Made by a program: the position numbers and the translations under genes. The notes below the pieces were generated by a model. The model made no database searches and was not told the DNA's origin. It worked only from the letters and a program-made list of their open reading frames with translations. This document shows, piece by piece, positions 1 to 11,446 of a stretch of 26,357 nt of DNA. The DNA comes from a virus (Duplodnaviria > Heunggongvirae > Uroviricota > Caudoviricetes), in IMG/VR virus record IMGVR_UViG_2541047815_000002, positions 1-26,357 of that record; one strand, 5' to 3'. The first letter of the stretch is position 1. Every line of letters begins with the position of its first letter.

Positions 1-1053
1 TTACGGGGTAATGCCAACCGCTGCCGCCACTTTGTCGCCACTTGGCAGCGTTGCCAGAGGATTGAAACGGAGCGCCGTTTCCAGATGATCCGGTGCCAGA
101 TGTGCGTAACGCATAGTCATTTTTATATCGTGGTGTCCGAGAATTTTTTGTAAGGCCAGAATGTTTCCACCCGACATCATGAAGTGCGCCGCAAACGTAT
201 GGCGCAGAACGTGTGTGAGTTGACCGCGAGGGAGCACGATAGACGTTTTTTCCATCACGGATAAAAATTGAAAATAGCAGTCTGTGAAGAAATTGAACCC
301 ATCAAGCGCCATGATCTCTTCGTAAAGCTCTTTACTGATAGGGATGCTTCTGTTTTTCTTCCCCTTCGTTCTTACAAAGGTAATTCGGTATTTGGTCACC
401 TGTGAACGAGTAAGATTTACGGCTTCTCGCCAGCGTGCGCCTGTGCTTAAGCATATCTTAACTACCAGTGCCAGAATTGGGTCCTGACGTTTGCAATCAG
501 CCAGTAATTCAACAATCTGCTCATGGGTAAGCCATGCCATCTCTTTTTCTGCGATGGTGAATTTTCGCATGTTCTCCAGTGGGTTCGGATACGACCATTC
601 GCCCAGGCGGGATAGTTCGCTAAAAACACTACTTAGATAGCTTTGCTCCAGGTTAATGGTGACCGGGCTTGCTCCTTTCTTCCATTTCTCGCTGAAGTAG
701 ATCTCACCTGTCAGGCGTTTATCTCGATAGTGGGCAAACATTTTAGAGGTTAGATCAGTTGCAAGGGGATTGCCCAGAGCGTCAACCATCAGCAGCAATT
801 TGTCATAGACATGCTGCCCAGCAGTCAGTGATTTACCATGTAGTTTGAACCATAGCTCAACCACGTCTTTCAGTGTTCGACGATCCACTGATTCACCTAG
901 CCAGGGCTTTGCTTCGGTTTCTTCCATCGTGTGACGCTCAAAAGCCAGTGCTTCGCCTTTGGTGGCGAATTGTTTACGCACACGACGCCCACTACGTCCG
1001 GCGGGGTAACATTCGCAAAGCCATTTTCCTGTGGTGAGTTTTCGTACAGCCAT
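1..1053 (-). CDS. int: Tyrosine integrase (P2/186-type site-specific recombinase)
   Basis: Minus-strand ORF. The preferred start is the ATG at 1051-1053 (protein MAVRKLTTGKW...), preceded by GGAGGG about 7 nt upstream on the coding strand. C-terminal region has the tyrosine-recombinase pattern (HVLRHTFA ... GHHDIKMTMRYAHL). The stop codon is at the very start of the window, so attL, if present, lies outside. Confidence 0.9.
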   Translation of the reverse strand: MAVRKLTTGKWLCECYPAGRSGRRVRKQFATKGEALAFERHTMEETEAKPWLGESVDRRTLKDVVELWFKLHGKSLTAGQHVYDKLLLMVDALGNPLATDLTSKMFAHYRDKRLTGEIYFSEKWKKGASPVTINLEQSYLSSVFSELSRLGEWSYPNPLENMRKFTIAEKEMAWLTHEQIVELLADCKRQDPILALVVKICLSTGARWREAVNLTRSQVTKYRITFVRTKGKKNRSIPISKELYEEIMALDGFNFFTDCYFQFLSVMEKTSIVLPRGQLTHVLRHTFAAHFMMSGGNILALQKILGHHDIKMTMRYAHLAPDHLETALRFNPLATLPSGDKVAAAVGITP

Positions 1054-1241
1054 AAAAAATGCCCTCCAATAGAGAGCATTTTTACTGTATGTATAACCAG
1101 TGTCAATGTATGAAATCCTGCGACCATACATCTCACTGAAGCCATAATGAAGTAGGCTATTCTTTTTGCTATGTGATCATGTAACTTTTGCGGTTAACCT
1201 GTGGCTCATTTTTATTTTAGGCGCAGATATAAAAGCAAAAG

Positions 1242-1433
1242 TTATCGTGAGTTTTTAGTACAGATTTTTTTGGATTTACTAATAGTTCCATCATTGCAAA
1301 CGAATTTGCCATCAGAGGTACAGTGAGAAACACCTCCCTTTTTCCCTGAGCAGGGATAATTTCTAGCATAGGTAGCTAGTGGGTTTAATAACAAAGAACA
1401 TGACAAAACCACAAAAAATACCTTACCAAGCAT
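1242..1433 (-). CDS. Small secreted cysteine-rich peptide (63 aa precursor), function unknown
   Basis: ATG at 1431-1433 with GGGAGA 7 nt upstream. N-terminal hydrophobic signal-like segment [23 protein letters not shown] with an AxA-like cleavage context, then a Lys-rich roughly 40-aa part with four Cys. Lies in a visibly AT-rich stretch between the cI stop and the int start, on the same strand as both. Confidence 0.4.
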
Positions 1434-1448
1434 AATTTTCTCCCGGTA

Positions 1449-2024
1449 CTATTTAACATACTTGACTGTTAAACTTATAATTTTACCAATTATTTCAATG
1501 TCTTCTATCTTACATTCAAAGGCTCTGTTTCCACCCTCGACGAAGATTCTTCCACCGGGTAAACGAGTAATGTCACGGATCGTTATTTCGCCATCAATAC
1601 TTATTACCCATTTACCATCACGTATATCATCAAATTCCTTATCACAAATAAATTCAGAATTATTATCTGTGATTACAAAAAGATTCTTGAATGCCGACGG
1701 TAGAAATTCTCTATCGAAAATATAAAAACCGTCTTCACACAAGGCCCCATCAGATAATACATATTTAGCAACTTCCATAGTATTTGTATTACCTGAAGTT
1801 TGCTTTGAACCATGCCCGGTTGTGAGCCAATTAAGCGAGGTGCCTGTTTCAAGGGCGCACTGGATTACCCATTCTGCTGGGAATGAGTCACGCATGTAGC
1901 GTGTGGCGAGTGTACTTTTAGAGATTCCTAAATGATCGCACAACGCCTGTCGAGTCTTGAATCCATAAGCTTCTACCATGCGCTCTATGGCGCCTCGTCC
2001 GCCTTTCTCCAAATTCATGGTCAC
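1449..2024 (-). CDS. cI: Immunity repressor CI (phage 186-type)
   Basis: 191-aa minus-strand ORF divergent from the lytic operon. N-terminal HTH-like segment (ALCDHLGISKSTLATRYMR). Position immediately upstream of int matches the P2/186 C-int arrangement. RBS GGAGTG lies just before the ATG at 2022-2024. Confidence 0.8.
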   Translation of the reverse strand: MTMNLEKGGRGAIERMVEAYGFKTRQALCDHLGISKSTLATRYMRDSFPAEWVIQCALETGTSLNWLTTGHGSKQTSGNTNTMEVAKYVLSDGALCEDGFYIFDREFLPSAFKNLFVITDNNSEFICDKEFDDIRDGKWVISIDGEITIRDITRLPGGRIFVEGGNRAFECKIEDIEIIGKIISLTVKYVK

Positions 2025-3948: not shown

Positions 3949-4802
3949 GCACCATCCTGAAATGGGCGGGAAATAAAACTGCCATAATGTCCGAACTAAA
4001 AAAACATCTTCCTGCTGGCCCGCGACTGGTTGAACCTTTCGCGGGTTCCTGTGCTGTGATGATGGAGACGGATTATCCCAGCTATCTGGTTGCGGATATT
4101 AATCCTGATTTAATCAACCTTTATAAAAAGGTTGCCGCTGATTGTGAATCGTTTATATCTCGCGCCAGAGTTTTATTTGAGATCGCAAACAGGGAGGTGG
4201 CTTATTACAACATAAGGCAGGAGTTTAATTACTCAACTGAAATTACTGATTTCATGAAAGCGGTATATTTCCTGTATCTCAATCGTCACGGTTACCGTGG
4301 TTTATGTCGCTATAACAAGAGCGGGCATTTCAACATTCCCTACGGTAATTATAAAAATCCGTATTTCCCTGAAAAAGAAATTCGCGCATTTGCAGAAAAG
4401 GCCCAGCGAGCAACGTTTATCTGCGCCAGCTTTGATGAAACGCTGGCGATGTTGAAGGCGGGGGATGTGGTGTATTGCGATCCGCCGTATGACGGTACGT
4501 TTTCCGGCTATCACACTGACGGCTTCACTGAAGATGACCAGTATCACCTGGCATCTGTTCTTGAACATCGGTCATCAGAAGGACATCCGGTCATTGTTTC
4601 TAACAGTGACACATCCCTGATCCGTTCGCTGTATCGCAATTTTACTCACCACTACATCAAGGCAAAACGCAGCATCGGTGTGGCAGCTGGCGAGGGTAAA
4701 TCAGCAACAGAAATCATTGCTGTTTCCGGGCCGCGCTGCTGGGTGGGATTTGATTATTCGCGTGGCGTGGATAGTTCTGCCGTGTACGGAGTACGTGCAT
4801 GA
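3945..4802 (+). CDS. dam: Dam-type DNA N6-adenine methyltransferase (orphan, no cognate nuclease seen)
   Basis: ATG at 3945 with GGAGG upstream. N-terminal SAM-binding motif (KWAGNK ... EPFAGS) and the catalytic DPPY tetrapeptide at 4479-4490. Translationally coupled to gene A (ATGA overlap at 4799-4802). Confidence 0.85.
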
Positions 4803-7213
4803 GTCATGCCGATATGAACAACTGCTGCGGCTTTAACGAAGCTGCCGCATCGTTCTCATGGAACAGCTCGAAAAAGGCCATTAACCCTTATCTGGACCCG
4901 GTGGAAGTTGCGCCGGTTTCTACGCTTTCAAACCTGATCACTCTGTACGCTGCCGATAACGAGCAGGAACAGCTGCGCCGTGAGGCGCTGAGTGATCAGG
5001 TCTGGGAGCGTTATTTCTTTAATGAATCCCGTGATCCTGTCCAGCGCGAAATGGAACAGGATAAGCTCATTAGTCGGGCAAAGCTGGCGCATGAGCAGCA
5101 GCGTTTTAATCCGGATATGGTCATTCTGGCGGACGTCAACGCCCAGCCTTCCCATATCAGCAAGCCGCTGATGCAACGTATTGAATACTTCAGCAGCCTG
5201 GGCAGGCCAAAGGCTTATTCCCGCTATTTACGTGAGACGATTAAGCCATGTCTGGAACGACTGGAGCATGTACGCGACAGTCAGCTATCTGCATCTTTTC
5301 GCTTTATGGCAAGCCATGAAGGGCTGGACGGCCTGCTGATCCTGCCTGAAATGAGTCAGGATCAGGTGAAACGCCTGTCCACCCTGGTAGCTGCGCATAT
5401 GAGTATGTGCCTTGATGCCGCTTGTGGCGATTTGTATGCCACCGATGACGTTAAGCCAGAAGAAATCCGCAATACATGGGAAAGGGTGGCAGCGGAAACC
5501 CTGCGTCTGGATGTCATCCCGCCTGCGTTTGAGCAACTCCGTCGGAAAAGAAACCGCCGTAAACCCGTGCCCTATGAACTCATTCCGGGTTCGCTGGCGC
5601 GTATGTTGTGCGCCGACTGGTGGTATCGGAAATTATGGAAGATGCGTTGCGAATGGCGGGAAGAGCAGTTGCGTGCTGTCTGCCTTGTCAGCAAAAAAGC
5701 ATCTCCCTATGTCAGCTATGAAGCCGTGTTGCATAAACGTGAGCAGCGCCGTAAGTCGCTGGAGTTTTTCCGTTCTCATGAACTGGTGAACGAAGACGGC
5801 GACACGCTGGACATGGAGGATGTGGTAAACGCCAGCAGCAGCAACCCTGCGCATCGCCGCAATGAGATGATGGCCTGTGTTAAAGGTCTGGAGCTTATCG
5901 CGGAAATGCGCGGTGACTGCGCCGTTTTCTACACCATCACCTGTCCGTCACGTTTCCATTCCACGCTAAATAACGGCAGGCCCAACCCAACCTGGACAAA
6001 TGCGACGGTAAGACAAAGCAGTGATTATCTGGTCGGCATGTTTGCTGCATTTCGTAAGGCGATGCACAAAGCCGGATTGCGGTGGTATGGCGTGCGGGTG
6101 GCTGAGCCGCATCATGACGGTACAGTTCACTGGCACCTGTTGTGTTTTATGCGCAAAAAAGACCGCCGCACCATCACTGCATTACTGCGTAAGTTTGCCA
6201 TCCGTGAAGACCGCGAGGAGCTGGGCAATAACACTGGGCCGCGCTTTAAGTCTGAGTTGATTAACCCGCGCAAAGGTACGCCAACAAGCTACATCGCGAA
6301 ATACATCAGTAAGAACATTGACGGGCGTGGTCTGGCTGGCGAGATCAGCAAGGAAACGGGGAAATCCCTGCGTGATAATGCTGAATACGTTAATGCCTGG
6401 GCGTCTCTGCATCGTGTTCAGCAATTCCGCTTCTTTGGCATTCCGGGGCGTCAGGCTTACCGTGAACTGCGATTGCTGGCTGGTCAGGCGGCAAGGCAAC
6501 AGGGGGACAAAAAAGCAGGTGCGCCGGTACTGGATAACCCGCGCCTTGATGCCATTCTGGCTGCTGCTGATGCTGGTTGTTTTGCCACCTACATCATGAA
6601 GCAGGGTGGCGTACTGGTTCCCCGCAAATATCACCTCATCAGAACTGCTTATGAAATCAACGAAGAGCCGACCGCCTATGGCGATCACGGCATTCGTATT
6701 TATGGCATCTGGTCACCTATTGCAGAGGGCAAGATCTGCACTCATGCCGTGAAGTGGAAAATGGTTCGTAAGGCCGTTGACGTTCAGGAGGCGGCAGCCG
6801 ACCAGGGCGCTTGCGCCCCTTGGACTCGTGGCAATAACTGTCCCCTTGCTGAAAATTTGTACCAACAAGGGAAAGACAAATCAGCTGATGGGGATACCAG
6901 AACGGATATCACCCGTATGGATGACAAGGAGTTGCACGATTACCTGCACAGTATGAACAAAAAAGAACGCCGGGAACTGGCTGCAAGGTTACGCCTGGTG
7001 AAACCGAAACGGCGTAGAGACTACAAACAGCGAATTACAGACCATCAACGACAGCAGCTCGTCTATGAACTGAAGTCCAGAGGATTTGATGGCAGCGAGA
7101 AAGAGGTCGATTTACTCCTTCGCGGCGGCAGTATTCCGTCAGGAGCAGGCCTGCGTATCTTCTATCGGAACCAGCGTTTGCAGGAAGATGATAAGTGGCG
7201 GGATCTGTATTAA
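4799..7213 (+). CDS. A: Rolling-circle replication initiator (P2 gpA family endonuclease)
   Basis: 804-aa protein. HUH-type motif HWH at 6128-6136 and paired active-site tyrosines YIAKY at 6290-6304, as in P2 A and phiX174 A. Lies in the expected position after the early genes. Confidence 0.9.
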
Positions 7214-8304: not shown

Positions 8305-9423
8305 ATGTATCTTTTCAAGTATTACCGTCCGGACTTCTTCTTCGAGAAAGCTATTCGTTATAATGAATTATATTTTTCCGCTCCTGCGCAATTGAATGAT
8401 CCTAATGATCTCAATATAGATTATCGTTTTGATAATAAATTGAAATTATGGGATATTTTATTGCGTTCTCCTTGCGATAAATCCTATGAAAATTTGAGTC
8501 ACATATTAGATTTGAGTAATTTGAAGATACATAAGGGATTGAATCGTATTTTTAGAGGAAAAAAAATAAAAAGTAGCATTGAGTCATTAGATAGCCTGTT
8601 TGACTCACACGTTGATGAGATACGTAAGATCATAAATGATGGTTTACTACCTATCAATGTGATTAATTCCGCTATTTATGGGAATATTCCTGAACCACGC
8701 CAATTTTTGGTCTCACTTTGCGAGAACAGTATCAAAGAAAGGTTGTATAGGAAAATAGTTCCTGCAGTATTCAGTGTGTCATTTTCAGCTAATGCGTTAG
8801 ATCGTATGATGTGGGCGCATTATGCTGCAGGCTTTAGTGGTTGTGTTGTGATTTATGAAACGCAGGATTTTAATATTAATGGCGTGCCACATCCTGGAAT
8901 GAAGCTAAGAGAAAATTTATTTTCATCAGATAAATTTAATTTTCCAGTTAAGCAAATAAAATATAGTAATCAGGCTAAAGAGGTTTCACTTCTAGACCCA
9001 AGCGCAAATGTTGCAGAGTTATTTTTAACTAAAAATAGATTTTGGAGATATGAAGCTGAATATCGAATGTTTATTCCAGAGGCAAATGCAGGAATAGGGA
9101 GTGAGCGGCATGTTCAAAGACGCGTAAATCGAAATATTGGACATATTTTTCATCATGATGCTAATGTTGTTAAAGGGATCATTTTTGGTCCTAGAATGTG
9201 TGAAATGAAAAAAGAAAGCATATGGAATTGTATCAAGTCAAATATGGAGAATTCAAATTCAACAATATGTTATTTTTTTGACTCTGAGTTATCAGCATCA
9301 GGAAAGATTACTATTTCAAAAGGGCAACGAGCGGAAAAAATGAAAAATTTCCCTTTGTTCAGGAACAAGTTAAGTCAGACGGAAATGGCTAAAGTTTTGA
9401 AGGAAATTGGCATTACGAACTAA
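8305..9423 (+). CDS. DUF2971-like protein (372 aa), accessory cargo gene, candidate anti-phage/abortive-infection factor
   Basis: Lies in a strongly AT-rich island (by eye) that contrasts with the phage backbone. From memory it resembles the DUF2971 pattern: N-terminal LFKYYR ... LYFSAPAQLNDPND, then MWAHYA and RYEAEYRMF. It occupies the tin/old-equivalent hotspot downstream of A. Confidence 0.6.
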   Translation: MYLFKYYRPDFFFEKAIRYNELYFSAPAQLNDPNDLNIDYRFDNKLKLWDILLRSPCDKSYENLSHILDLSNLKIHKGLNRIFRGKKIKSSIESLDSLFDSHVDEIRKIINDGLLPINVINSAIYGNIPEPRQFLVSLCENSIKERLYRKIVPAVFSVSFSANALDRMMWAHYAAGFSGCVVIYETQDFNINGVPHPGMKLRENLFSSDKFNFPVKQIKYSNQAKEVSLLDPSANVAELFLTKNRFWRYEAEYRMFIPEANAGIGSERHVQRRVNRNIGHIFHHDANVVKGIIFGPRMCEMKKESIWNCIKSNMENSNSTICYFFDSELSASGKITISKGQRAEKMKNFPLFRNKLSQTEMAKVLKEIGITN

Positions 9424-9577: not shown

Positions 9578-9679
9578 CGCGCGCTAACTCATAAATCCTA
9601 GATTATTAGTGGATTTATCTCATTGAAATGTGCACTATTCCCAGCATTGAGTTGTACCAGATGTCTTTATGGAGGGACT

Positions 9680-11446
9680 GTGGCTTTTGTAACTGATATT
9701 CGGCTTGAAGATAATGCTATTGCTGCACCTGCGACAGCACAGGTTATGGCTCAGAGGCTAGGATCTGTATTACGTAAGAGATATGAAGAATTCATCCATA
9801 AAAGAGAGTGTGCACCAGGCCAAGCAGACTATGATGTAAAAATGGCTAGCAGGGCTTTAGCTGCATTCACTATGTATCAGTTAGGATGTGTGGATGATAA
9901 GTATGCAGGGGAGTCTGTATGTGATAGTAGTGAAGATGGTGGTATAGATGGAATAGCAATCAACCATAACGAAAAAATCGTTGTTGTTGTTCAATCAAAA
10001 TTTCACCAATCGGGAAACGGCACTTGGACAAGAGCCGATTTTATGTGTTTTAAGGATGCTTGTGAGAAGCTACAAAGTGAAAGATACGAATTATTTGATT
10101 CCATATTGCAAAATAAAAGCGGGGAAATAAGTGCGGCTTTAAGTAGTTTTGAATACAAGTTCATCTTTGCGATGGCGCATACAGGTAAAAAAGGTGCTGC
10201 AGAGGAAATATTAAATGATATGCGGGAATGGCAATATCAATTAAACGCTGCAGCTTTTACACCTGAGGATGAGCCTAAAGAGAACTGGGGATTTCAGGTT
10301 CATTTAATATCCTCTGAAGATATGATGCATTGGTTACAGAATGGCTCTCGAAATCAAATTGATCTTAACAGGGTTGAAATTGAGCGTTTTGGATTTTTGA
10401 ATGAACCATATCAAGCTTTTTACGGGGCTATTAGTGGTGATCAAGTTGCAGAATGGTGGGAAGAGCATGGTGCTCGATTATTTACAAAAAACATAAGGAA
10501 TATGCTTGGTAAAACAGAAGTGAATGAGGAAATAAAAAAGACAGCTATAGATAATCCTGATATGTTTTGGTTTTATAATAATGGGATTACTGTACTGGTT
10601 AAGGAAGTTGTTCCTCATAGACGAAACGCAGCTCCTAATATAGAGAGAGGGATTTTTGATTTTCGTGATGTAAGTGTCATTAATGGTGCACAAACAGTCA
10701 GTAGTATTGGCGCATGTAAAGATGCGCTTGGTGAAAACATATATAGACTCAAAGTGCCAGCTAGATTCATTGTTATAGATGATGATACTGATAATTTAAC
10801 TGCAAATGCAATTACAAAAGCTAACAATTTCCAAAATAGAGTATTGGGAAGAGATTTTGCATCGCAGCAGGCAGATCAACATAGATTGGCAAGGGAGTTA
10901 GTGCTTGAAGGATATCAATATCAGTTACTAAGAACAGATGAAGATCATTCACAGACAAATACGAAAGTCATTGACTTGGATGAGGCGCTCAATGCACTCG
11001 CATGTTTAAGTAAAAATAATACGGTTGTATCGACACTAAAATCAAATCGCGGTAGGTTTTTTGAAAATTTTGAAGGCTCTCTATATAAAACTATTTTCAA
11101 TCCAAGATTAAGTGGTTTAAAACTTATCAATACTGTTCTACATTTTAGAGTTATAGATAAGTTGATCGGTAAAACATTACTATCAGTAGATAAAACGACC
11201 CATAGTCGCAAGCATTTAATTATTACGCATGGTAATAGATACTATGCGTCTGTACTATTGAGCAACGTTTCTGGGATACATAATAGCTCAGAAATTCTTG
11301 TTCCAGATGAAAAAAATCTTTCCGAAGAATTAAGTGCATTAATTCAACGTGCTGAAGAGTACATTGAAGATAATTACCCGAATGCCTATCCGGCAAGATT
11401 TTTTGCAAATCCAACGAAAATACAAGAGTTATACGATAATGTTTAA
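9680..11446 (+). CDS. AIPR-like (abortive infection phage resistance family) protein with putative N-terminal PD-(D/E)xK-like motif
   Basis: Long ORF in AT-rich DNA. Start is uncertain: TTG at 9623, GTG at 9680 with GGAGGG upstream, or ATG at 9746. Motifs DGGIDGI ... VVVVQSK (D...QxK, nuclease-like) and NNGIT ... INGAQT, which I associate with the AIPR family. Followed immediately by a strong terminator. Confidence 0.55.
   Translation: MAFVTDIRLEDNAIAAPATAQVMAQRLGSVLRKRYEEFIHKRECAPGQADYDVKMASRALAAFTMYQLGCVDDKYAGESVCDSSEDGGIDGIAINHNEKIVVVVQSKFHQSGNGTWTRADFMCFKDACEKLQSERYELFDSILQNKSGEISAALSSFEYKFIFAMAHTGKKGAAEEILNDMREWQYQLNAAAFTPEDEPKENWGFQVHLISSEDMMHWLQNGSRNQIDLNRVEIERFGFLNEPYQAFYGAISGDQVAEWWEEHGARLFTKNIRNMLGKTEVNEEIKKTAIDNPDMFWFYNNGITVLVKEVVPHRRNAAPNIERGIFDFRDVSVINGAQTVSSIGACKDALGENIYRLKVPARFIVIDDDTDNLTANAITKANNFQNRVLGRDFASQQADQHRLARELVLEGYQYQLLRTDEDHSQTNTKVIDLDEALNALACLSKNNTVVSTLKSNRGRFFENFEGSLYKTIFNPRLSGLKLINTVLHFRVIDKLIGKTLLSVDKTTHSRKHLIITHGNRYYASVLLSNVSGIHNSSEILVPDEKNLSEELSALIQRAEEYIEDNYPNAYPARFFANPTKIQELYDNV

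Follow-up and report, generated by a model that had tools for sequence, protein, structure and literature searches.

The YdcA family is named and catalogued in three hidden Markov model (HMM) libraries, and was still termed 'poorly characterized' in a 2026 paper. Escherichia coli K-12 YdcA (b1419; models NF007462/NF007463/NF007464) is encoded at the chromosomal cybB-ydcA-trg locus and combines a cleavable leader with one core of ~35 residues that holds four invariant cysteines. The closest described system in position is that of vibriophage K139, in which the gene order from PL is cI, orf2, glo, int; the phage record enters Glo as periplasmic and as having a part in phage exclusion, and in a later paper glo figures as the immunity/exclusion gene of the family. 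The closest in predicted structure is Legionella Dis2 (Lpg0823), a dispensable component of the outer-membrane cap in the Dot/Icm machine, a type IV secretion system (T4SS); the two similar lobes of Dis2, pinned by five disulfides, lie beside the outer membrane and contact the lipoproteins DotC, DotD and DotK (PDB 7MUC/7MUD). The literature treats Dis2 as Legionella-specific and describes it as having no structural relatives. Here we analyze a 26,357-bp stretch of DNA (IMG/VR record IMGVR_UViG_2541047815_000002, positions 1 to 26,357; hereafter the window), a 186-like (Peduoviridae) E. coli prophage that carries a 63-codon YdcA-family gene, referred to below as the ydcA-like gene, between the immunity repressor gene cI and the integrase gene int.

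The window protein shares with K-12 YdcA the leader and the four-cysteine core, which in both starts PCSGxKGG(V/I)SHC, and window residues 10–59 align with the chromosomal E. coli copy at 57% identity (tblastn). E. coli ydcA is a chromosomal gene, whereas the window gene is phage-borne and lies in the cI–int operon. There it occupies the same place as K139 glo, a gene for a small periplasmic protein (as predicted here for the window protein) in the lysogenic operon of a member of the Peduoviridae; Glo, however, is 137 aa long and has no cysteine framework, unlike the window protein. Dis2 resembles the window protein in having a signal peptide and small disulfide-stapled lobes (predicted here for the window protein), lies under the outer membrane, and shares with the YdcA family the framework C(C)SxxGGxxxC-x6-VCNxGxxS-C. 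It differs in having two tandem lobes with ten invariant cysteines rather than one lobe with four cysteines in the mature part, in lacking the Lys-rich SKSKK tail, and in belonging to a 13-fold T4SS assembly, whereas the ORF set of the window showed no T4SS genes. As far as the literature was searched, three features of the family are undescribed: its recurrent placement behind prophage repressors, which extends to Peduoviridae of two proteobacterial classes; an unannotated copy in Haemophilus phages HP2 and S2; and fusions to nucleases. The same holds for the probable kinship with Dis2.

A YdcA-family gene directly behind the repressor

The ydcA-like gene is, with near certainty, a real gene and a member of the YdcA family. 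Its product scored 114.6 bits against NCBIfam NF007463 (PRK10040.1-2; cutoff 93, E 1.3e-33), covering profile positions 1–58 of 58, and matched phrog_6000 (PHROG 6000, function unknown) at E 3.1e-34. Pfam PF27300 (PF27300.1), which is newer than the Pfam-A release scanned, was seen as a precomputed label on the 100%-identical protein P0001. The product fell under the cutoffs of the sister models NF007462 (68.5 bits vs 118) and NF007464, and because of its NF007462 score we regard it as belonging to a distinct YdcA subfamily. A first-pass annotation, made from the sequence alone, had not recognized the family; the homology search now names it.

The family is large and its core is nearly fixed. 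An exhaustive profile scan returned 455 clusters (50% identity representatives) at E<=1e-3, and in a collection of 5.8 billion proteins the 100%-identical cluster of the window protein has 355 members on at least 1000 contigs. The YdcA core motif, PCSGxKGG..C..F.C.DG..S.SK..C with its four invariant cysteines, is complete in the window protein, as is the precursor layout typical of the family, a cleavable leader within ~55–65 residues (by a rule-based check). Across 23 aligned homologues the invariant columns are P27, C28, S29, K32, G33, G34, C38, F44, C46, D48, G49, S52, S54, K55 and C58, and the 34-residue core is almost invariant from Escherichia to Rhizobium. Between the window and the E. 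coli B allele, the 34 core codons differ by eight synonymous and no non-synonymous changes, giving a ratio of non-synonymous to synonymous substitution rates (dN/dS) of ~0; between genera dS is saturated and dN is only 0.12–0.19. Selection on the gene is thus strong, purifying, and exerted at the protein level.

It is this homology (NCBIfam, PHROG) and purifying selection, rather than size, that identify the ORF as a gene: its length alone is unremarkable, as the first 4 kb of the window contain 41 ORFs of at least 30 aa. The alternative that the ORF is a chance one in an AT-rich spacer, or that the region acts as RNA or DNA, is refuted by the curated HMM matches at E ~1e-33, by the 455 representative clusters, by the synonymous-only changes (8 vs 0), and by a conservation that tracks the reading frame and the cysteine pattern; in addition, no Rfam family matched anywhere in the window. 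We give this alternative practically no credence.

On the minus strand the cI stop codon TAG (1451–1449) is followed by TACC, GGGAG, AAAATT and the ATG of the ydcA-like ORF, which starts 15 nt past the end of cI with a good Shine–Dalgarno sequence and a 6-nt spacer. The precursor begins with MLGK, twelve hydrophobic residues and NPLATYA, followed by R at the predicted cut, with small residues at positions −3 and −1. Our signal-peptide call is heuristic and rule-based, and comparison of the 23 homologues agrees with it. An alanine immediately precedes the conserved core in all 23; with this alanine as −1, a small residue occupies −3 in 18 of them, and the other five have an AxA (AHA or AQA) one residue upstream. 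The leader sequence is free to vary among these proteins, yet the n/h/c layout and the AxA-type site are kept. No lipobox was found in the leader: Cys12 lies in the h-region, too near the N-terminus, and is not conserved among the homologues, and the cleavage region is of the AxA type. In this the protein differs from the Cor/Llp-like lipoproteins of superinfection exclusion, which have a lipobox with an invariant +1 cysteine. The predicted mature part has a mass of 4.3 kDa, a pI of 9.7, nine Lys and Arg vs two Asp and Glu residues, and four cysteines, and it is very probably periplasmic and disulfide-bonded, judging from these sequence features. The earlier proposals of a 63-aa ORF with a good ribosome-binding site, and of a small exported Lys/Cys-rich product, are both borne out.

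The labels attached to the protein or its name are of unequal worth. The sole match in the Pfam-A scan of the ORF, GULLO2-like at E 0.076, was judged to be due to chance. RefSeq calls some copies on identical DNA a 'YdcA family protein', in agreement with the family assignment, and others a 'hypothetical protein'. UniRef lists the identical P0001 as 'Conjugal transfer protein', probably a propagated misannotation, there being no conjugation or T4SS neighbors in the 80 loci described below. Most of the literature found under 'ydcA' concerns unrelated name collisions, namely the Bacillus subtilis rhomboid YdcA, a ydcA of the gonococcal genetic island, and a plasmid ydcA. A circularly permuted kinship to DUF3761 (C.DG..S.S...CS.HGGV) is conceivable; the Pfam scans gave no DUF3761 match.

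Variable cargo at the cI–int junction

Comparison of related phages shows that the ydcA-like gene is optional cargo in a variable slot between cI and int. The slot is empty in phage 186, where cI and int share a boundary base, and in Fels-2, where they are 3 nt apart. It holds one gene of 112 aa in PSP3, four small genes in HP1 that differ from the content of HP2 and S2, orf2 and glo in K139, a gene of 349 aa in Klebsiella phage 4LV2017, and an ATPase of 558 aa in vB_EcoM-813R9. Positions 1001–1112 of the window are kept (95.5%) in 4LV2017, which has other cargo, and we therefore place the left edge of the variable segment near 1112. Presence/absence polymorphism and unrelated genes at a single junction are also the marks of the P2-like variable cargo slots that hold morons and defence hotspots, and, as in those slots, GC content is lower here than in the flanking int.

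The first-pass annotation had taken the gene for a moron in an AT-rich insert, and both terms need to be narrowed. Presence or absence among close relatives at one junction is shared with Hendrix-type morons, and that part of the claim stands. Such morons, however, have their own promoter and terminator, and a crude consensus scan found no minus-strand sigma-70-like promoter dedicated to the ydcA-like ORF and, on that strand, no terminator-like site from cI through the ORF to int. The gene is embedded in an operon and, lacking a detectable promoter or terminator of its own, is not a self-contained moron cassette. Likewise, GC content is indeed low (0.31–0.37) across the ORF and over ~1050–1500 as a whole, but the C-terminal half of cI (to ~1800) is equally AT-rich, so that the supposed insert is better seen as an AT-rich immunity region.

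The placement of the gene within the cI–int transcription unit, also proposed earlier, agrees with the lack of a predicted terminator in this stretch. The records of 186 and K139 present cI and int as one lysogenic operon from pL; by this analogy the product is expected whenever CI is made, and the gene is probably expressed in the lysogen. Two promoter-like sites were seen in the vicinity, TTGACA-17-AAAAAT at 1106–1078 on the minus strand, ~25 nt upstream of the int start, and a plus-strand TTAACA-17-TATAAT (11/12 matches) at 1453–1481 that is antisense to the 3' end of cI. As the number of such sites equals the expectation from shuffled sequence, neither is taken as evidence of function.

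Occurrence in prophages, plasmids and chromosomes

The 317-bp segment 1132–1448, which spans the gene, is present in 595 of 5426 complete E. coli genomes (~1 in 9). The carriers include the E. coli B lineage (C3029, NEBExpress; L088, NZ_CP014269.1 1685316-1690630), where a decayed prophage beside rcdA/ybjJ keeps int, the ydcA-like gene, cI and apl, with cII and the replication genes truncated. Disrupted copies are few among the 595 genomes; one is that of E. coli O19:H7 730V1 (L090 1373-2655), in which the IS5-like ISKpn26 splits the ORF.

Beyond these close copies, relatives were found at 125 places in GTDB species representatives of Alpha-, Beta- and Gammaproteobacteria, on 485 IMG/VR contigs and on 58 plasmids. 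The 80 IMG/VR relatives that were kept are all near-identical E. coli prophages and add no diversity, and gene neighborhoods were counted in a separate set of 80 species-representative loci. In eight of the latter the ydcA-like gene is immediately preceded by a same-strand cI-type repressor gene and followed by an integrase gene (Escherichia, Yersinia, Haemophilus/Pasteurellaceae), and in a ninth, from Buttiauxella, one extra gene separates cI from ydcA. In nine further P2-like prophages, either betaproteobacterial (Comamonas, Iodobacter, Deefgea, Aquabacterium, Hydrogenophilales) or from Oceanisphaera, the gene for a repressor with a helix-turn-helix (HTH) or HTH and S24 domains lies on the same strand at most 1.9 kb upstream; the interval often contains other genes, for small secreted proteins or lipoproteins. 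The comparison of this junction among related prophages, which the first-pass annotation had called for, thus finds the ydcA-like gene recurring behind the repressor.

Haemophilus phages HP2 (NC_003315.1 2486-2668, minus; L001 2944-3126, plus) and S2 (Z71579.1) carry an unannotated 60-aa YdcA-family ORF, the ATG of which overlaps the cI stop codon by one base. The next gene in both phages, orf1(S), encodes a signal peptide and a tRNA_anti-like OB-fold domain.

Chromosomal copies occur in E. coli, Citrobacter and Atlantibacter. At the cybB-trg site, a paralogue is present in all seven Escherichia/Shigella species representatives examined, and in none of them is it accompanied by an immunity partner. 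The family is also the apparent cargo of 3.9–5.4-kb plasmids of Acinetobacter and Psychrobacter.

No T4SS, secretin or conjugation genes lie beside ydcA-like genes in the 80 loci, and a TraD-family gene adjoins one in a 3.9-kb MOBQ plasmid. Six unrelated elements (Table 1) have, directly next to the ydcA-like gene, a gene for a protein that is membrane-anchored and whose conserved C-terminal domain (~150 aa) has no Pfam match: the 3.9-kb MOBQ plasmid of Acinetobacter, a 5.4-kb plasmid of Psychrobacter, Moraxella phage Mcat15, the Comamonas and Oceanisphaera P2-like prophages, and a metagenome-assembled genome of Neisseriaceae. We considered this protein as an obligatory partner and rejected the idea, since an HMM of it finds none in the window and no instance among the other 77 species loci.

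Fusions of the YdcA module

Of the 150 best-scoring family representatives, 17 reach a length of 150 aa or more. In five of the 17 the YdcA module comes after a signal peptide and a Ser/Pro-rich linker and precedes a nuclease-type domain. The nuclease-type domain is Endonuclease_NS in three proteins (P0170, P0153, P0198), SNase in P0114 and a single-HKD phospholipase D (PLD)-like domain in P0185. Other long members contain two- or three-fold tandem repeats of the module (P0081, P0079) or a VasL C-terminal domain, and some have a second basic, cysteine-rich module, CxCx6CxGPRGGxYC, with weak matches to PBCV_basic_adap. The fusion to three unrelated folds of secreted nucleases suggests that the YdcA module may bind nucleic acid or tether enzymes at a particular envelope site.

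Predicted structure and relation to Legionella Dis2

AlphaFold2 (AF2) models of the window protein show a small β-hairpin module, with a predicted local distance difference test score (pLDDT) of 82–90 over the core in the full-length model and of 79.8 overall in the mature-only model. Dis2 (chain AN of 7MUC/7MUD) was the top match in the PDB, whether searched with the family profile or with either AF2 model. With the leader included, the profile matched Dis2 at E 1.3e-4; the mature-only profile gave E 0.082, level with LDL-receptor class A repeats. Foldseek placed Dis2 first with both models, at template modelling (TM) scores of 0.42–0.62 and E 0.33–0.65, the mature-only model giving TM 0.62, E 0.65 and 36% identity over 39 columns. 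Comparison with the Dis2 family by hhalign gave a probability of 73% and a pairwise E of 3e-5, which we count as a weak match. PF27300 is found on six of the 120 listed Dis2 homologues.

Because the match fell to E 0.08 without the signal peptide, we downgraded Dis2 to a probable remote relative, and consider homology of the two likely. Dis2 has the look of a YdcA-like lobe duplicated in tandem, a suggestive likeness that is not statistically significant.

Other features of the window

The coordinates of the features discussed are collected in Table 1. The mechanically delimited int ORF reaches 1131, and RefSeq gives a 1053-bp integrase on near-identical DNA; for cI, RefSeq starts two codons later (ATG 2018) on identical DNA. 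Past cII follow DUF5347, dam, the replication genes and the structural genes. In sequenced strains the prophage adjoins rcdA/ybjJ. No tRNAs were found in the window.

A variable slot of a kind known from P2-like phages, bounded by a replication gene and the portal-side structural genes, holds two cargo genes. One matched PADLOC PDC-S31 and Pfam DUF2971, and the other AbiU and the Pfam AIPR protein family; from these matches they are a candidate anti-phage defence pair.

Table 1 Features of the window and, in the last row, of other loci with ydcA-like genes (own coordinates of each locus)
Feature	Coordinates	Strand	Remarks
Tyrosine integrase, int	1..1053	minus	probable ATG 1053, MAVRKLTTGKW...; Int_N 3.4e-32, Phage_integrase 1.1e-21
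Spacer, ydcA-like stop to probable int start	1054..1241	minus	188 bp; no terminator-like hairpin
ydcA-like coding sequence	1242..1433	minus	63 codons + TAA; ATG 1433-1431, TAA 1244-1242 (ORF listing)
Predicted mature peptide	1245..1364	minus	40 aa, 4 invariant Cys, net charge +7
Predicted Sec signal peptide	1365..1433	minus	residues 1-23, cleavage after Ala23; n/h/c layout, rule-based
Shine-Dalgarno GGGAG	1440..1444	minus	6 nt before ATG; read from sequence
cI immunity repressor (186/P2 CI type)	1449..2024	minus	Phage_CI_repr 2.8e-33, Phage_CI_C 2.7e-27
apl/cox-like gene	2144-2365	plus	
cII	2392-2907	plus	
Replication gene	4799-7213		
Cargo gene	8305-9423	plus	PDC-S31 (PADLOC), DUF2971 (Pfam)
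Cargo gene	9623-11446	plus	AbiU, AIPR protein (Pfam)
Portal-side structural genes	11478 onward	minus	
Membrane-anchored neighbour gene	L175 966-1697; L176 1281-2240 (-); L005 3626-4264; L016 5255-6007; L024 6202-7200; L059 6159-7028		

Possible functions of the ydcA-like gene

The explanation that we favor as a whole, with slightly more confidence than doubt, is that the ydcA-like gene encodes a periplasmic lysogenic-conversion or exclusion factor produced from the cI–int operon. The pL/pE transcript that makes CI in the lysogen would read through the gene, and the GGGAG site would drive its translation; Sec would export the precursor, signal peptidase I would cut it after Ala23, and the 40-residue product with its charge of +7 would fold in the periplasm into a small β-hairpin module with two disulfides. 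In the weakest step of this scheme, the free module would bind a conserved anionic or envelope partner, be it DNA, a lipoprotein or the membrane surface, at the periplasmic face of the outer membrane. It may thereby protect the lysogen as a lysogenic-conversion factor, most likely by hindering the entry of foreign DNA or of a superinfecting phage, as annotated for the unrelated Glo. Lysogenic conversion is plausible; a role specifically in exclusion or in interference with entry is the likeliest single candidate, but a tentative one, which we would sooner doubt than assert.

Several observations weigh against this explanation. No PADLOC defence model matches the ydcA-like protein, and Glo, compared with it by hhalign, gave a probability of 0.1% and no sequence or profile similarity, so that Glo is an analogue and not a homologue. 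Not every ydcA-like gene is linked to a repressor: Moraxella Mcat and Acinetobacter Vieuvirus phages have it in the tail module, and in Neisseria its place is behind a Mu-like gam in the early region. The scores against Dis2 given above are modest. The chief point against a narrow exclusion model is the extreme conservation of the core across classes, which points to a universal ligand and away from a phage-specific target; the near-invariant core and the presence of chromosomal copies in the same host fit a general role in the envelope or in stress at least as well. Finally, what has been reported of ydcA itself concerns stress. E. coli W delta-ydcA is hypersensitive to 300 mM 3-hydroxypropionate, the only ydcA deletion phenotype reported, and ydcA was reported to be induced at pH 5 under YdcI (PMC7642389).

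These data are the basis of the most substantial rival, a host-fitness factor: the phage copy would do what chromosomal YdcA does in envelope, acid or organic-acid stress, and an extra, constitutive dose would benefit the lysogen. The near identity of the core between chromosomal and phage copies is what one would expect of it, and the apparent role of the family as cargo of small Acinetobacter and Psychrobacter plasmids also speaks for it. The host, however, already has ydcA, so that the gain from a second copy is not obvious; the 3-hydroxypropionate phenotype is a single observation and is overridden by delta-yieP (PMC7642389); and a phage-oriented function is indicated by the recurrence of the gene behind prophage repressors, in the slot occupied in K139 by an exclusion gene. 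We consider this rival rather unlikely, though it is the one with the best claim to attention. A third possibility takes its cue from Dis2, namely that the product is a docking subunit on the outer-membrane lipoproteins of a trans-envelope machine (secretin, T4SS, pilus or Bam/Lpt-type) and would, for example, block conjugative or pilus-mediated entry of DNA. The rank of Dis2 as top PDB match, the common cysteine framework, the PF27300 labels on Dis2 homologues, the contacts of Dis2 with DotC, DotD and DotK, and the TraD-family neighbor in the MOBQ plasmid are all in its favor, but once the leader peptide is left off no similarity score reaches statistical significance, T4SS and secretin genes are absent from the neighborhoods in the 80 species loci, and Dis2 is itself dispensable; we hold it to be improbable.

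The first-pass annotation had also raised a secreted toxin, bacteriocin or antimicrobial peptide directed against competitors, and a small, cationic (+7), disulfide-rich product encoded on mobile elements does recall defensin-type peptides. A plain Sec-type leader, however, delivers only to the periplasm, and there is no double-glycine leader; no ABC exporter, lysis or immunity gene adjoins the gene in the window, where its neighbors are cI and int, or in the related loci; the chromosomal paralogue at the cybB-trg site stands without an immunity partner; and use of the module as the N-terminal domain of larger periplasmic or secreted enzymes and in tandem repeats is atypical for bacteriocins. 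This suggestion is very unlikely to be right.

Returning to the periplasmic conversion or exclusion factor that we favor, a more specific and more novel version of it can be put forward. The YdcA module might be a hitherto unrecognized extracytoplasmic binding mini-domain, with DNA or a conserved outer-membrane partner as its ligand, that is mounted on secreted nucleases, duplicated in Dis2, and, in the free form made by temperate phages of several families together with their repressor from one transcript, intercepts incoming nucleic acid in the periplasm. This is a long shot, but if it were true the family would constitute a new, widespread class of periplasmic entry-exclusion factor acting against superinfecting genomes or against transforming or conjugative DNA.

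Implications for the YdcA family

In roughly one of every nine complete E. coli genomes, the laboratory B/BL21 lineage among them, a prophage has this gene in its lysogenic operon. Haemophilus, Moraxella, Acinetobacter, Neisseria and many other Proteobacteria have relatives of it, in prophages and plasmids. Leads toward the function of YdcA are provided by the place of the gene behind the repressor, by the slot that it has in common with K139 glo, by the fusions to three kinds of secreted nuclease, and by the probable relation to Dis2; the same comparison also suggests an origin for the 'Legionella-specific' Dis2. If the module serves ordinary stress protection, the finding would be a routine one; if it blocks the entry of DNA, it would represent a new kind of prophage-encoded exclusion.

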